A program made the translations under genes and the position numbers. From assembly GCA_964445405.1 (NCBI GenBank), contig CAYUKX010000002.1, positions 1-44,791 on the forward strand: DNA of 44,791 nt, in the 5' to 3' direction. The notes beneath the pieces were generated by a model. It was not told where the DNA came from. It saw only the letters and a list, made by a program, of their open reading frames with translations, and made no database searches. Positions 9,660 to 38,047 of this stretch are shown piece by piece (position 1 is the first letter of the stretch; every line of letters starts with the position of its first letter). The stretch is from an uncultured Candidatus Saccharibacteria bacterium (GTDB lineage: Bacteria > Patescibacteriota > Dojkabacteria > J137).

Positions 9660-11347
9660 TTCTTATTTAACTTTCGTAAATTTTTATAAATCATCTTTTT
9701 TTCTATTGCTGGTGCAACTCTAAGTACTTCTTCAATTGTAGTTAGTCCCGCTCTAACTTTATCTAATCCGTCTTCAAAAAAAGATATTGCTCCATTTTCT
9801 TTTGCGACATTCCAAATTTCAGAACTTGAGCTTTTTGTTAGTATCAAACTTTGTAATTCGTCATTAATTTCAATTAATTCAAAGATTCCTATTCTTCCTC
9901 TATATCCTGTAAAATTACATTTCTGACACCCTTTACCAGAGTAAAGTCTTATCTTTTCATCTTTAAAATATTCTTTGCTGTACGGCATTAGCTCTTCTAG
10001 GTCATCATGAGTATATTCATGACTTACTTTACATGAATCGCATATTTTTCTAATAAGTCTTTGAGCAACAATTAGGTTTAAAGTTGATGCCAATAAAAAT
10101 GGCTCAATGCCCATATCAACAAGCCTTGGGATTGCGGTTGCCGCATCGTTAGCATGAAAAGTTGATAGTAATAAGTGTCCAGTTAACGCCGCGTTTACAG
10201 CTATTTCTGCTGTTTCTACATCTCGGATTTCTCCAACTAACATTACATTAGGGTCCTGTCTGACAATTGATCTTAGACCTCTTGCAAAAGTAATTTCGTT
10301 TTCTGCATTTACTTGTATCTGATTAATTCCTGGAATTCTAAACTCAACAGGATCTTCGATTGTAGTTATATTTATTTGGGGGTTTAAAAGAATTTTTATT
10401 ATAGAGTAGAGCGTTGTTGTTTTACCAGAACCTGTTGGGCCGGTTGTTAATATCATTCCGAAAGGTTTTTTATAAGCTTTTTCAAGTTTACTAAAGTTTG
10501 CTTCAGAGAACCCTAAATCCTTAATATTTAGGTTCTTTGTATAATTTGTCAGTATTCTAATTACAATTTTTTGTCCATCTAATACAGGAACAATAGATAC
10601 TCTTAAATCTACAGCGAATTTATCGTTTGAAAATCTAATAGCACCGTCCTGAGTTCTGTACCTTTGGTCAATTCTAATATTAGACATTACTTTTATTCTA
10701 TTTAGAATATTTTCGTAAAGCTGCACCGGAACTTCGCCAACTTCTCTAAGTAATCCATCAACTCTTATACGTAGTAATACTGTTTCTGATTGTGGTTCAA
10801 AATGAATATCTGAAGCTTTTAAATCGTATGCTTCACTAAATAATTCATCTAAAAATTTATTAGTAAAATCTGTCCCACTTTCAAAAATGGTATTAATTCT
10901 ATCCTGAAATGGATCTTTGAATCTTAATAAAATTTCATCAATATCTTCGGTTAGTGAGTAGAAAATTTCAACTTTATATTTTGGTATAACCGTTTCTAAT
11001 AGATCTTTTATTTCCTCAATCTGTTCAACTCTATCTGTGGTAACGCTTATTGAATAGTTATCGACTTTAAATGCTAAAACTCGATTTTCGTTAACTATAT
11101 CTTTTGGAATAATATTCAAAGTATCTTCTTTAATTTCACTTTTTTGAAGATTAAAGTAACCAACTTTAAATGTTTCTGCAATTGAATGCCCAATTATTTC
11201 TTTGCTGAAGAACCTTGCTCCAATTAAGTTATCAATGACTGTGCCTCTAGGGTAATCTGCCAGTGCCTTATTAGTATCTTCTTCGGAAATGTAATTATTA
11301 TCAAGTAGGGACTTAAGAATTTCTGTCTCTGATAGCGTACTTCTCAT
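9656..11347 (-). CDS. pilB: Type IV pilus assembly ATPase PilB (GspE family)
   Basis: Walker A is GPTGSGKTTTLYS. Asp/His boxes are VMLVGEIRD and LLLSTFHANDA. The tetracysteine motif is CDSC...CQKC. A GspE_N-like N-terminal domain is present. Confidence 0.93.
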   Translation of the reverse strand: MRSTLSETEILKSLLDNNYISEEDTNKALADYPRGTVIDNLIGARFFSKEIIGHSIAETFKVGYFNLQKSEIKEDTLNIIPKDIVNENRVLAFKVDNYSISVTTDRVEQIEEIKDLLETVIPKYKVEIFYSLTEDIDEILLRFKDPFQDRINTIFESGTDFTNKFLDELFSEAYDLKASDIHFEPQSETVLLRIRVDGLLREVGEVPVQLYENILNRIKVMSNIRIDQRYRTQDGAIRFSNDKFAVDLRVSIVPVLDGQKIVIRILTNYTKNLNIKDLGFSEANFSKLEKAYKKPFGMILTTGPTGSGKTTTLYSIIKILLNPQINITTIEDPVEFRIPGINQIQVNAENEITFARGLRSIVRQDPNVMLVGEIRDVETAEIAVNAALTGHLLLSTFHANDAATAIPRLVDMGIEPFLLASTLNLIVAQRLIRKICDSCKVSHEYTHDDLEELMPYSKEYFKDEKIRLYSGKGCQKCNFTGYRGRIGIFELIEINDELQSLILTKSSSSEIWNVAKENGAISFFEDGLDKVRAGLTTIEEVLRVAPAIEKKMIYKNLRKLNKK

Positions 11348-17985: not shown

Positions 17986-18384
17986 ATGTCTAGAACTATA
18001 GATAACTTGATGAAGGCCGCGCAAGGTGAAGCATTTGCAAGATTAAAGTACATGGCATTTGCACAAAAAGCTATGCAAGATGGTCATCCTGAAGTGGCTC
18101 AATTATTCGAAGAAGCTGCCGGTGCCGAAACTATACATGGAATAAACCACCTATTTGCAATGGATTTTGTAAAACCCACTAAAGAAAACTTAGGTGCAGC
18201 AGCAGCGGGAGAGCAAGATGAAATTGATGAGATGTACCCTAGAATGGTAGAAGAAGCAAAGAACGATACAGAAATAACAGAAGAACAAAGAGTAAAAGCT
18301 ATTAAAGCTTTCGAGACAGCAATGCAAAGAGAGAAGGCTCACGATGCGATGTTTAAAGATGCTATGCAAAACTTTACTGAATAG
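17986..18384 (+). CDS. Rubrerythrin-family diiron protein (ferritin-like domain only, no rubredoxin domain)
   Basis: It has two E...EXXH half-sites (GEAFARLKY / GAETIHGINH; GEQDEIDEMYP / REKAHDAMF). At 132 aa it lacks the CxxC pairs. Confidence 0.8.
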   Translation: MSRTIDNLMKAAQGEAFARLKYMAFAQKAMQDGHPEVAQLFEEAAGAETIHGINHLFAMDFVKPTKENLGAAAAGEQDEIDEMYPRMVEEAKNDTEITEEQRVKAIKAFETAMQREKAHDAMFKDAMQNFTE

Positions 18385-18396
18385 TATTTAAGGTTT

Positions 18397-18413
18397 GGGG
18401 GCATTCTGCCCCC
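18397..18413. terminator. GC-rich hairpin between convergent rubrerythrin and island-1 ORF
   Basis: GGGGGCA-ttc-TGCCCCC lies 13 nt after the rubrerythrin stop and 6 nt before the minus-strand ORF stop. Confidence 0.65.
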
Positions 18414-18418
18414 ACCTA

Positions 18419-18685
18419 CTAATCTCGAGCGTCCCATTTTTGCCGTGCCCGCTCATTGGCTTTACGGACTGCGTTGTCCGCAATCATGAGGGGGCGGATC
18501 ATCAGCCACAATGCTGCGGCCCACCCATCAAACACTAAAAGGGTCAACTCGACACTTCCCCCTACAAAATTGTTTACAATCACGTAGGGGCCCATTGTAA
18601 GTAGCATTAGTTGTGGCAGGCTCGCGTAGAACCAACCTAGCACCACAGCTAATACGATCAAGAGCTTTACAGTTCTGCCAAGCAT
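18419..18685 (-). CDS. Small (88 aa) two-helix membrane protein encoded in G+C-rich island 1
   Basis: AGGAG sits 5 nt upstream of the ATG. Hydrophobic segments are KLLIVLAVVLGWFYASLPQLMLL and VELTLLVFDGWAAALWLMIRPLMI, with a charged tail. Codon usage (GCG, CGC, CTG, CCC) is unlike the neighbours. Confidence 0.55.
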   Translation of the reverse strand: MLGRTVKLLIVLAVVLGWFYASLPQLMLLTMGPYVIVNNFVGGSVELTLLVFDGWAAALWLMIRPLMIADNAVRKANERARQKWDARD

Positions 18686-18713
18686 TTTAGCTCCTAGACC
18701 TTTGCTTGCTTGA

Positions 18714-18722
18714 ATTATAACA
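18714..18722 (-). promoter_or_regulatory. Extended -10 promoter element for island-1 ORF
   Basis: The minus strand reads TGTTATAAT (TGnTATAAT), ~29 nt upstream of the ATG. There is no good -35. Confidence 0.4.
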
Positions 18723-18816
18723 TCTCTTATTCGATTGGCAGATATAGCTATTCTTTATTGACTTGAATAAGAATTAGTTTTAAACTCAGAATAACTTAAA
18801 TTATTAACTATAAAAC

Positions 18817-19323
18817 ATGAACGATGTAAAATCCTCAGAGCTTTTCCCAAAGCCTGTAGTTAAAACAGGATTCGTTTTTGGAGCAGCGTCAGCTGTATTG
18901 AGCCTATTAGGAGTAATTCCTATTTTAGGTATTTTCTTTGGCTTACTAAATTGGATTGTTGGCCTAGCTTCAGGTTATGTTGTAATAACTACTGTAGGTG
19001 GCAGTAAAGAAAAGCTACCAGAAGTACTAAAACATACTGTTGTCACAGGAGTAATTTCTGGATTAGTATCTGGATTTGGTGGAGGAGTAGCATCTGTTTT
19101 AAATGGATTGCTATTTGCTAGAGTAAGCTTCTTTGGAGTTTATTATACTCCTGGATTAGCTGATTTTATTAGTTGGTTTATAGGGGCATTTATATGGGGA
19201 GTAATTGGAATGGTAATCTGGAACTCAATCGGAGGTATTATTCAAGTTTACTACACACCAGATAAATTACCTGCATCTATAAGAACTCAATTAGATAAAG
19301 TTGTAGCATTCTTAAAAAAGTAA
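18817..19323 (+). CDS. Glycine-rich integral membrane protein, unknown function
   Basis: The 168-aa ORF has about 4 hydrophobic, Gly-rich helices. I recognise no motif. Confidence 0.6.
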   Translation: MNDVKSSELFPKPVVKTGFVFGAASAVLSLLGVIPILGIFFGLLNWIVGLASGYVVITTVGGSKEKLPEVLKHTVVTGVISGLVSGFGGGVASVLNGLLFARVSFFGVYYTPGLADFISWFIGAFIWGVIGMVIWNSIGGIIQVYYTPDKLPASIRTQLDKVVAFLKK

Positions 19324-36232: not shown

Positions 36233-36332
36233 AAAACTGTGTTTAAAAATGACTTGGAATTTTACCACAAAAAGCAAGTAATTTCTAATGTAGATAATTA
36301 AATTAGGTGATTAGTCAGTTGAACACTACGTG

Positions 36333-36361
36333 TTGAGAATTATATACTAATAATATATAAT
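36333..36361 (+). promoter_or_regulatory. Sigma-70-like promoter for island-2 ORF
   Basis: TTGAGA, a 17-nt spacer and TATAAT (perfect -10) lie ~27 nt upstream of the ATG. Confidence 0.5.
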
Positions 36362-36387
36362 CCAGTGTGCATATACGGAGGTGTTGG

Positions 36388-36807
36388 ATGAAAACCCGAG
36401 CTTTTAATTTGGTGGTTGCGGCAATTGCTGTTGACTTGCTACTAATATTAGTCGTAGTGGCAACGTCACCTTTGGTGAGTTCGGGCAGTTCGGACTGCGA
36501 TGTAGTGCGTCAGGCGGGGCCAATGATTTGGTCTCGCAACCTGGACGGGTTGACAGGACTGTTGGATGGTCAGGATGTCGACCATCTGCGCTCGGTCGCA
36601 CCTGATTGTGGATATCCGCAGTCGATGTGGCTTAGTACGCCGACTTACGGTCCGACGCCCACATTCAGCTGGAATTGCAGTGCCGAATCTGAGAGGATTA
36701 CGCGGAATCAGAGAAATCCGCGGGAGCTCGGCACAGCAGTCCGCAGGCTAAACCAATGTCGCGCGCAGCTCGCGGCGACTGCTACGGCAACATACCGTAG
36801 CCCCTAA
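36388..36807 (+). CDS. Small (139 aa) signal-anchored, 4-Cys protein encoded in G+C-rich island 2
   Basis: GGAGG at 36377-36381 lies 6 nt before ATG 36388. The N-terminal helix is FNLVVAAIAVDLLLILVVVATSPLV. A hairpin terminator follows directly. Coding status is uncertain because G+C-rich DNA yields spurious ORFs. Confidence 0.45.
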   Translation: MKTRAFNLVVAAIAVDLLLILVVVATSPLVSSGSSDCDVVRQAGPMIWSRNLDGLTGLLDGQDVDHLRSVAPDCGYPQSMWLSTPTYGPTPTFSWNCSAESERITRNQRNPRELGTAVRRLNQCRAQLAATATATYRSP

Positions 36808-36814
36808 CGTGCAA

Positions 36815-36837
36815 AGCGCCACCCAAAAGGTGGCGCT
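36815..36837. terminator. GC-rich hairpin after island-2 ORF
   Basis: AGCGCCACC-caaaa-GGTGGCGCT starts 8 nt after the stop codon. Confidence 0.7.
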
Positions 36838-36873
36838 AAAGTTTCTACTATATATTGTCAATCTTGAATCCTT

Positions 36874-37428
36874 CTATTTTATATATCTTGAAATATCTCT
36901 TTGGTGCTCTGGGTGCTTTTTTATATAAGCTAACGATACTGGATCTAAATAGTATCTGTTGTGTGCGACTTCTTCTTGAACCATTTTTGCAAAATATGCT
37001 ACAACAAAGGAGATTGTAATAAACGTGGTATCGTTTGCAAAAACTGTTTGAGATATTATGTATAAAGGAAAGAAGAACTCTAATAGATTTGGATAATATA
37101 TTAAATATTTTGAGTTTTTAGTCACTTCAAAAAATATACTGCCAATAATTCTTAGAACAAAATAAGCTACAAATAACCATAATAATTGGTAGTTTGTATA
37201 CCATACTGCAAGCACCATGTAGAAAACAAATAATAGATCTAGTACTTTATCTATCATCTGATAGGTTATATATCTAGCACCACTTCTGAGCGCGAACGAA
37301 TAATCAAAGGCATCTAAAACAAAAGTTATAAGCCATGCTAATAATGGTTGAGTTAAAAAAAGTGGGAAAATAAAAATTCGTATAAGTATTATTACTGAGT
37401 AAGCAAGTTTAAAGAACAATTTATACAT
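36874..37428 (-). CDS. Polytopic membrane protein, unknown function
   Basis: The 184-aa protein has about 5 hydrophobic helices and native AT-rich composition. It shows only a weak DxxD....DxxxD resemblance (LDAFDYSFALR..IDKVLD) to CDP-alcohol phosphatidyltransferases, which is not enough for a call. Confidence 0.55.
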   Translation of the reverse strand: MYKLFFKLAYSVIILIRIFIFPLFLTQPLLAWLITFVLDAFDYSFALRSGARYITYQMIDKVLDLLFVFYMVLAVWYTNYQLLWLFVAYFVLRIIGSIFFEVTKNSKYLIYYPNLLEFFFPLYIISQTVFANDTTFITISFVVAYFAKMVQEEVAHNRYYLDPVSLAYIKKHPEHQRDISRYIK

Positions 37429-37511
37429 ATATTTATTAGATTTGCTAATTAATTGTATATACTTTAGGTAAATCCAGCAGAGAAGTCAAATACAAGGAAA
37501 ACAGGTGAATA

Positions 37512-37540
37512 TTGACAAAAGTATATATTGGATATATACT
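37512..37540 (+). promoter_or_regulatory. Near-consensus sigma-70-like promoter for island-3 ORF
   Basis: TTGACA (perfect -35), a 17-nt spacer and TATACT lie ~40 nt upstream of the GTG start. Confidence 0.55.
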
Positions 37541-37579
37541 ATATATGTATTTAACAATCGAATTGATGGGGGTGTCAAG

Positions 37580-37912
37580 GTGTTGAAGTCATGGTATTTG
37601 CTGGGGTTGCTCACGTTCCTGGTTTCAGGAGCGATTGCCTCGGTTAATCCGCAGGCAGCGGCTATTTGGAGCGGTTTCGTGAGCATTCTCGCAATTTCTG
37701 CGGGATTAGGGTTTTCCTTAGGGGTAACCATCGTTTTTGCTGTGGCAAAGGGGATCGCCAATGGGTTTACTTTGTTTTTTAACCCGTTCGCGCGGATCGA
37801 CAACCGTGAAACGGACGAAAAAGTCCGTTACATCAACGTAGTCAACATCCTCTGCCTGTGCGCGCTTCTTTGCGTGCATGGGTACATCATCATTGCCGTC
37901 GCGCTCAAGTAG
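37580..37912 (+). CDS. Small (110 aa) membrane/secreted protein encoded in G+C-rich island 3
   Basis: GGGGG at 37568-37572 lies 7 nt before an in-frame GTG at 37580. A signal-like N-terminus (SWYLLGLLTFLVSGAIASVNPQAAA) is followed by two further hydrophobic segments. A strong terminator follows. The tracked ORF start at 37505 lies inside the promoter. Confidence 0.5.
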   Translation: MLKSWYLLGLLTFLVSGAIASVNPQAAAIWSGFVSILAISAGLGFSLGVTIVFAVAKGIANGFTLFFNPFARIDNRETDEKVRYINVVNILCLCALLCVHGYIIIAVALK

Positions 37913-37926
37913 CGTACGGCAAATAC

Positions 37927-37959
37927 AAAAAGGGCGGAATCTTCGGAAACCGCCCTTTT
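37927..37959 (+). terminator. Intrinsic terminator after island-3 ORF
   Basis: AAAAAGGGCGG ... CCGCCCTTTT has an inner TC/GA pair closing a TTCG loop and is followed by a T-run. Confidence 0.8.
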
Positions 37960-38047
37960 GCAGGTCTATTCGACAAACTCCATTTTTTTGCTTGCTCAAA
38001 ATCAACTTTCAAATTATTATATTCTAACTATTTCAAAGTAAATTTTT

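Follow-up and report, generated by a model that had tools for sequence, protein, structure and literature searches.

This study examined a 44,791-nt stretch of DNA (the whole of which is referred to as the window) from an uncultured member of Candidatus Dojkabacteria, in which a G+C-rich island at 18385-18725 (island 1) contains, on the minus strand, a small gene encoding a membrane protein of 88 amino acids (aa). We consider it probable that this is a native, vertically inherited, monocistronic gene that depends on a Shine-Dalgarno (SD) sequence and produces a small membrane protein from an mRNA maintained in a G+C-rich, highly folded state. The original prediction for the island had described a self-contained mini-cassette of foreign origin, on the grounds that its composition, codon choice and translation signals depart from those of the surrounding genome. 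The parts of the unit and its departures from the genome were found as described; the foreign origin is contradicted by the presence of the same gene at the same site in related species.

Conservation of the small gene across species

Orthologues of the small gene occupy the same position in at least ten species of one Dojkabacteria sub-clade, which means that the gene was not recently inserted from a foreign source. In these species it is present as a single copy and always in the same gene order. Each family member is divergent from a membrane protein of 167-195 aa, the counterpart of a 168-aa gene in the window, which adjoins the small gene in all loci that reach that side (L002-L011, L013, L015, L016, L017 and L020). 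On the other side, a convergent rubrerythrin gene followed by a HemN-like radical-SAM gene is present in all members except the most distant one (L015/L016), for which only the membrane-gene side was seen. The neighbours encountered in these loci are accordingly the rubrerythrin, the HemN-like protein, the membrane protein and an LTD protein, and the junctions of the small gene with its neighbours are conserved across orthologues. Identity to the window is 0.38-0.66 for the small protein and 0.64-0.86 for its neighbours, and the divergence ranks of the two agree, which fits the vertical descent of a faster-evolving gene.

The window organism belongs to Candidatus Dojkabacteria (WS6, within the Patescibacteria or candidate phyla radiation, CPR), and its closest reference genome is 'Patescibacteria group bacterium BroJett037', a GTDB representative (TypA 89% and rubrerythrin 82% identical); the next TypA relatives are Dojkabacteria metagenome-assembled genomes (MAGs). 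BroJett037 (L020) supplied a tenth intact orthologue in the same place, and a search for related loci in GTDB with the HemN-like protein gave no match. In total, the open reading frame (ORF) is intact in 10 of 11 copies. The remaining copy (L021 7772-8032, MAG binchicken_co23_219) is split over two frames near codon 54 and still G+C-rich; either it became a pseudogene recently or the split reflects a fault of assembly.

Conservation of the island in sister genomes had been named beforehand as an observation that speaks against foreign origin, and this is what was found: the orthologue lies at the same site in 10 species with its promoter, SD and hairpin conserved, third-codon-position G+C (GC3) is raised in 9 of 10, and the island as a whole is conserved with similar composition within the sub-clade. 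Flanking repeats beyond chance-size matches were not detected around the island, the window contains no tRNA or tmRNA, and no mobility genes flank the island in an integrase scan that covered part of the window's ORFs. A chimeric join, which the original prediction had proposed to look for, was likewise not seen at the assembly level: six ENA, JGI and Logan assemblies, each made independently, contain the island between the same neighbours, with even depth over it, and it was recovered in three bioreactor runs. In two of these (X1 and X3) one contig runs across both island borders with no joint, and in the third (X2) overlapping contigs tile both borders.

Composition and folding of the coding sequence

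Island 1 has a G+C content of 49.0% against a window mean of 32.8% (standard deviation 4.3% in 341-nt windows), which places it 3.8 standard deviations above the mean, and its level is reached or exceeded in 24 of 2223 windows of 341 nt. In the sliding-window plot that had been suggested as a check, the island stands out with a peak of 53.5% (200-nt windows). The originally reported count of 34 G+C in the 60 nt of line 18421-18480 was exact on recount, in a window where the median per 60-nt line is 20 and the 5-95% range is 13-27. The 88-aa ORF has a G+C fraction of 0.51 and a GC3 of 0.56, compared with a GC3 range of 0.16-0.32 among the window's remaining ORFs of 90 aa or more that lie outside its three islands, and the excess is largest at codon position 3; composition (0.49-0.51 vs. 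0.33) and codon choice do set the island apart. The G+C-rich tract coincides with the transcribed unit from the SD to the terminator, and on the promoter side G+C drops to 20-34% within about 30 nt. The rubrerythrin gene had been described as mildly G+C-elevated as well. An excess is present, but it sits at codon position 1 (0.56), with a GC3 of 0.29 that is near native; since an excess at position 1 reflects amino-acid composition, the rubrerythrin gene falls outside the anomaly.

The same departure is seen in the related species, where the small-gene GC3 (0.56 in the window) is 0.55, 0.56 (L015, the most distant), 0.49, 0.44, 0.43, 0.43, 0.42, 0.38 and 0.26 (L017), whereas the neighbours in the same genomes have values of 0.15-0.29. 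When the neighbouring genes are compared between species, their four-fold degenerate sites have an identity of 0.31-0.44, compared with 0.33-0.37 expected at full saturation. With synonymous sites saturated, neutral compositional memory should be gone, and the persistence of the GC3 excess despite this saturation therefore argues for a composition that is maintained and is not a fading transfer scar. On these codon-position comparisons, the high G+C is a maintained property and not the mark of a recent import.

The coding sequence (CDS) is also predicted to fold far more stably than ordinary messages of the genome. Over its 267 nt the minimum free energy (MFE) is -99.9 kcal/mol, roughly double the value of native tiles. 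Its z-score is -3.4 against dinucleotide shuffles and likewise -3.4 against synonymous permutations, the latter keeping the protein and the gene's own codon usage. Among eight orthologues the sense-strand z-scores against dinucleotide shuffles are -3.4, -4.2, -3.7, -1.6, -3.2, -6.7, -3.6 and -3.5, with the antisense strand less extreme than the sense strand in six of the eight. Against synonymous permutations, 10 of 10 are negative (-3.4, -4.1, -2.0, -1.1, -3.2, -6.1, -3.8, -2.4, -2.2 and -4.4). Control tiles of 267 nt from eight native genes (29 tiles) gave a mean z of -0.09 with a standard deviation of 0.96 and a minimum of -1.9, and native genes compared with their synonymous permutations gave +1.1, +0.3, -0.6 and -2.1. 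The most AT-rich orthologue (L017, GC3 0.26) retains the folding excess (z -3.6/-3.8) at near-native GC3; folding would therefore be the constant and G+C the variable, which suggests that predicted folding is the conserved trait.

Transcription unit and translation signals

The unit is self-contained as originally proposed, with its own promoter, SD, ORF and terminator all located where they had been placed. The promoter (18714..18741, minus strand) comprises an extended -10 element, TGTTATAAT, at 18714-18722 and a weak -35-like CTGCCA at 18736-18741; the promoter scan gave 10 of 12 matches, with TG ahead of the -10. The same TGTTATAAT recurs upstream of the orthologues in L007, L008, L012, L013 and L020, and L011 carries TGATATAAT. 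From a predicted transcription start, a 5' untranslated region of about 22 nt (18686..18707, minus strand) contains the SD AGGAG at 18691-18695, 5 nt before the ATG of the CDS (18419..18685, minus strand, from the ORF list). SD-like cores were read in nine other orthologues (AGAGGA, AAGGAGA, AGGAGG, AAGGAG, CAGGAGG, GAGGAG and AGAGAGGAA), with only GGGGG in L020. No promoter-like site was predicted on the opposite strand inside the unit.

Downstream, the inverted repeat scan placed a G+C hairpin, TGGGGGCA ttc TGCCCCCA, at 18396..18414, with a perfect 8-bp stem (including the GGGGGCA/TGCCCCC noted originally) and a 3-nt loop. It occupies the 34-nt gap between the convergent stop codons of the small gene and rubrerythrin and is probably a bidirectional terminator shared by the two genes. 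A GGGGGC/GCCCCC hairpin recurs in the orthologues, and it is the only helix that RNAalifold retains across nine of them, with GC pairs in 7-9 of 9. At the BroJett037 locus, separate transcript contigs of rubrerythrin and the small gene meet at this hairpin. An integron gene cassette was considered and rejected: on reading the sequence, the downstream palindrome is a plain GC stem without the GTTRRRY core of an attC site, and the unit carries its own conserved promoter and is not promoterless.

The remaining genes of the window start differently. A 5-nt SD core precedes only 3 of the 45 ORFs of at least 90 aa, two of the three being the other G+C-rich islands, in agreement with the original remark that native genes lack an SD. 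A TANAAT box ends 5-9 nt before the start codon in 6 of 43 native genes (e.g., at 684 on the plus strand, 17923 on the minus strand and 41399 on the plus strand), and boxes so near to the starts suggest leaderless mRNAs.

The encoded protein family

An exhaustive phmmer search of 1.84 billion cluster representatives (about 15 billion proteins) found six true relatives of 73-94 aa and 34-68% identity, and a profile search raised the family to nine clusters, one of which is named as a hypothetical protein of a Patescibacteria bacterium; these nine clusters plus the L020 copy make up the family set analyzed here. Two additional phmmer matches (P0008 and P0009) were rejected as homologues, being repeat proteins that accumulate weak scores, and a word-indexed search with the 88-aa protein returned only a 99% identical variant. 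The homology check therefore gives no foreign source: the matches are internal to the clade, with no homologue outside the Dojkabacteria sub-clade among the 1.84 billion representatives. The protein also has no counterpart in Pfam, PHROGs, NCBIfam, PADLOC or a PDB sequence profile, nor in phage and plasmid collections (tblastn), and a Foldseek search of the PDB with the predicted structure gave no match. Judged by these searches, the small gene founds a new family of small membrane proteins restricted to a Dojkabacteria sub-clade.

Frame, length and start are kept in the 10 species. The dN/dS ratio (nonsynonymous to synonymous divergence) is 0.16 for L007-L012, the sole pair with measurable dS, and in protein sequence the small gene has diverged about 2.5-fold faster than its neighbours (dN 0.26 vs. 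0.09-0.11). Invariant residues are W18, P33, L47, G54, A57, L61, D70, V73, R74, N77, A80 and R81 (the last swapped with its neighbour in P0007); D53 is present in 9 of 10, and P65-L66 are also among the conserved residues. The two transmembrane (TM) helices and charged tail of the original description were recognized as two hydrophobic helices and a tail with six K/R and four D/E. AlphaFold, run with the family alignment, predicts helices at 2-40 and 45-87 with a predicted local distance difference test (pLDDT) score of 92; the modelled product amounts to a membrane hairpin in which the second helix runs on into the conserved charged tail. A near-invariant Asp-Gly (D53-G54) lies inside helix 2, followed by a basic amphipathic C-terminal extension (D..VR..N..AR). 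Together with the constant 168-aa membrane neighbour, this intramembrane Asp-Gly and the conserved basic tail may indicate that the protein acts in the manner of a subunit within a small membrane complex.

An overlapping or antisense reading frame was also considered. Every orthologue has a long open frame on the antisense strand, yet its stops are at the permutation expectation; across the alternative frames, stop-codon counts equal those expected from synonymous permutation, and none is protected from stops, on which ground the idea was rejected.

Expression of the locus

At the BroJett037 locus, just three genes in a stretch of 4.6 kb are represented by contigs in four bioreactor metatranscriptome runs, namely rubrerythrin, the small gene and the 168-aa gene; the HemN and LTD genes of this locus have no contigs there. 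In three of these runs, word depth is greatest for the small-gene contig, which extends from about 10431 to 10716 (the gene itself being at 10428-10706). This evidence is at the level of presence, taken from assembled contigs, and is not a quantification. Other RNA runs contain the same three genes sporadically, and the window strain's own sequence is in none of the RNA runs. Separately, one contig from a wastewater RNA-Seq run (X12, matching L020 10297-10537) extends from the 3' end of rubrerythrin through the shared hairpin into the small gene, of which it covers 110 nt; it could represent terminator read-through, giving RNA antisense to one of the genes, or DNA carry-over.

Proposed mechanism and alternative explanations

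Under the reading favoured here, the extended -10 promoter would give a transcript of about 330 nt, in which a short leader with a canonical SD precedes an ORF of some 90 codons and a terminator in the form of a GC hairpin. The choice of G/C-ending codons would let this mRNA fold about twice as stably per nucleotide as the ordinary mRNAs of the genome, well beyond what its own composition or protein sequence needs, which may yield a compact, nuclease-resistant and long-lived message. Because the message would be folded, an SD would be needed for ribosome loading, as opposed to the other genes, which start without an SD from AT-rich or leaderless 5' ends. The product would be a helical hairpin, probably a small subunit or partner of the divergent membrane protein of about 170 aa. 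Folding would then be the selected trait, with stability or high output as its benefit.

Escherichia coli lpp offers a comparison, with a very stable, extensively base-paired monocistronic mRNA encoding a small, abundant envelope protein. The two share a short single-gene transcript with a strong promoter, an SD and a terminator, a small envelope protein as product, predicted structure far above background and, for the BroJett037 orthologue, readily recovered transcripts. They have no relationship in sequence or fold, and the stability is in the present case predicted. Folding achieved through codon usage foreign to the genome has, to our knowledge, not been reported for lpp.

Several observations weigh against this interpretation. 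Across nine orthologues, RNAalifold found no consensus structure inside the CDS and kept the terminator alone; selection would therefore act on foldedness as a whole or on helices particular to a lineage, a case that is more difficult to demonstrate. The helices of the window's MFE structure are retained more than expected (57% of cells paired vs. 37-44% in slid controls; covariation 0.19 vs. 0.10-0.12), a signal that is partly due to the structure having been derived from one alignment row. Because of their shared ancestry, the orthologues do not provide ten fully independent z-scores. One G+C-rich, SD-led small gene of the clade, in L032, is without folding excess (z 0.05), so that a gene of this class can be G+C-rich without being unusually folded. 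In eight of nine orthologues the SD is no more occluded than in synonymous-permuted controls. The expression evidence consists of assembler word depth from libraries labelled 'RNA?' and concerns an orthologue rather than the window strain.

The strongest competitor, which we regard as unlikely while still giving it some weight, is an ancient horizontal acquisition by the clade ancestor from an unknown donor (host, phage or plasmid), with the present gene a slowly decaying relic and its folding a by-product. Acquired genes of the kind modelled by Lawrence and Ochman are said to be compositionally atypical and to ameliorate with time, and the small gene resembles them in its sharp local shift in G+C, GC3 and translation signal, with an SD in an otherwise SD-less genome. 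The gene is absent beside rubrerythrin in more distant Dojkabacteria (L022, L023, L027 and L028), the GC3 of its orthologues is spread from 0.26 to 0.56 as it would be under uneven amelioration, and islands 2 and 3 of the window occupy a gap whose content differs among sister species, which shows that such genes come and go. Unlike genes in that model, however, the small gene is fixed in synteny in at least ten species and its GC3 is unrelaxed: beside saturated neighbours a neutral relic is expected at a GC3 of about 0.2, yet the most distant orthologue (L015) stands at 0.56. In addition, neither mobility genes nor insertion scars were found for it, no donor homologue appeared among the roughly 15 billion proteins or among phages and plasmids, and the folding excess over composition- and protein-matched controls holds in 10 of 10 orthologues.

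We find it improbable that the gene encodes a toxin-like or gated membrane peptide akin to type I toxins, whose folded, stable mRNA would silence translation until processing or induction, with antisense RNA supplied by read-through from rubrerythrin. Type I toxins (Hok/Sok, TisB/IstR-1 and AapA1/IsoA1) are usually under 60 aa with one TM helix. Like them, the small gene has its own promoter, a highly folded and by prediction very stable mRNA, and a small hydrophobic membrane protein, here with a charged tail. The SD is mostly paired in the predicted ensembles (P(unpaired) 0.01-0.40), 61% of cells retain, with compensatory changes, the helix between the SD and codons 7-9, the convergent gene is separated by just 34 nt, and the terminator is crossed by one contig from an RNA run. 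Against this, the SD occlusion does not exceed the synonymous-permuted controls, on which ground a specific SD-sequestration switch was rejected. The protein, of 84-94 aa with two helices and a soluble tail that is conserved, exceeds the typical size of type I toxins; its gene occurs as a single copy in strict synteny and not in a patchy or multi-copy pattern; the promoter scan found no promoter for an antitoxin RNA inside the unit; PADLOC and PHROG gave no matches; and purifying selection together with the steady linkage to the membrane protein suggests a housekeeping role. Class II holins (e.g., S of phage 21), which have two TM helices and a charged C-terminal tail, are similar in size, helix number and highly charged C-terminus, but the small gene lies in neither an endolysin nor a phage context, lacks PHROG matches and is a conserved chromosomal gene beside housekeeping genes.

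A local mutational or repair bias with no RNA-level function, such as GC-biased gene conversion at a recombination hot spot, is very improbable. It would account for an excess that is greatest at third codon positions and for the roughly 2.5-fold faster evolution of the small protein, as in a recombination-prone segment. It does not account for a G+C tract that matches the transcribed unit and ends within about 30 nt on the promoter side, cannot yield folding beyond dinucleotide- and codon-matched shuffles, and leaves the better folding of the sense strand over the antisense strand without a cause.

Two further explanations can hardly be credited. A recent insertion of a mobile mini-cassette between rubrerythrin and the membrane gene would explain a composition, codon usage and SD so sharply unlike the surrounding genome, but it is opposed by same-site orthologues in at least ten species whose neighbouring proteins are only 64-86% identical, by the agreeing divergence ranks, by conserved junctions unlike those of independent insertions, by the lack of repeats, tRNA, integrase and phage or plasmid collection matches, and by the many independent assemblies with even depth. 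A structured non-coding RNA gene with an incidental ORF would suit a G+C-rich island with strongly negative z in an AT-rich genome, a contrast that Klein, Misulovin and Eddy reportedly used in 2002 to screen for structured RNA genes and that, with the excess folding energy, singles out this locus too; here, however, the structured RNA is an mRNA with a conserved, selected ORF of the same length and start in 10 species, an SD, protein-like conservation and a dN/dS of 0.16, RNAalifold shows no conserved internal helices, and Rfam searches (the whole window at the gathering score, the island at E up to 10) gave noise only and no family.

Neighbouring genes

The divergent 168-aa gene (18817..19323, plus strand) encodes a multi-pass membrane protein of native composition (GC3 0.19) without a match in Pfam, NCBIfam, PHROG or PADLOC. 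Its promoter region (18758-18786, plus strand), which reads AAGTCAATAAAGAAT...GAGTTTAAAACTAAT on the small gene's strand, is near-identical across species; this conservation is unusually strong for an intergenic segment, the same species being otherwise saturated at silent sites. The convergent gene (17986..18384, plus strand), which shares the terminator hairpin, is a native member of the rubrerythrin family (Pfam PF02915, E = 6e-14; GC3 0.29) and is 73-83% identical in sister species.

Other G+C-rich islands of the window

Two further islands with similar features lie on the plus strand in the gap between the genes for TypA and an FKBP-type isomerase (36278-38047). Island 2 (36300-36850, ORF 36388-36807; G+C 0.55, GC3 0.56) has a TATAAT promoter, a GGAGG SD and a hairpin (GGCGCCACC/GGTGGCGC(C)). 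Its 139-aa product has an N-terminal anchor and conserved cysteines, as a Cys-rich anchored or secreted protein, and its folding z is -3.8 against dinucleotide shuffles and -2.8 against synonymous permutations. Homologues with 37-41% identity occupy the same place in L030 and L033, with none in BroJett037 (L031). Island 3 (37540-37960, ORF 37580-37912; GC3 0.64) has a TATAAT-type promoter, a GGGGG SD-like sequence with a GTG start and a GGGCGG/CCGCCC hairpin; its product is a multi-pass membrane protein of about 110 aa, the corresponding z-scores are -4.9 and -3.8, and no homologue was found in the related loci examined. The three island proteins are mutually unrelated.

The gap itself varies between sister species. 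In the window it contains islands 2 and 3 and an AT-rich gene for a 184-aa membrane protein; in BroJett037 it is empty (L031 5794-6000); in L030 (492-1151) and L033 it holds one island-2-like gene; and in L032 (4257-6000) it holds a 354-aa gene and a different G+C-rich, SD-led gene for a 106-aa membrane protein. The L030 locus (JACSRR010000189.1), with a Dojkabacteria-type TypA (89% identity), FKBP and the island-2-like gene, comes from a MAG labelled Ignavibacteriaceae, a placement that is probably a binning error. In the sequences compared, G+C-rich, SD-led genes for small envelope proteins thus form a class that recurs in the clade, with fixed as well as variable members.

A broader proposal, which we put forward tentatively and hold to be less likely than the reading of the small gene itself, is that Dojkabacteria use two translation regimes. 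An AT-rich bulk of genes would be SD-less or leaderless, and a small class of SD-dependent, G+C-rich, hyper-folded monocistronic genes, to which the three islands would belong, would encode small envelope proteins. If this is true, the G+C of the class would be upheld by selection on mRNA folding or stability beyond the times that erase neutral synonymous signal, and such messages could form a long-lived transcript reservoir, e.g., in dormancy or host attachment. It would further follow that composition-based calls of horizontal gene transfer in CPR genomes systematically mislabel native genes.

Implications

As read here, the small gene would be a counter-example to composition-based transfer calls, in that a gene with odd G+C, odd codons and an odd ribosome-binding signal would be an old, vertically inherited one. 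Its product would add a family, without Pfam, NCBIfam, PHROG, PADLOC or PDB relatives, that is confined to an uncultured CPR clade. The few SD-led genes of the window are exactly the G+C-rich, strongly folded ones, which may link mRNA folding, codon composition and the mode of translation initiation in this genome. Finally, G+C held against a strong AT mutational bias over saturating divergence would constitute a measurable signal of selection at synonymous sites, in organisms that are usually assumed to be dominated by drift.

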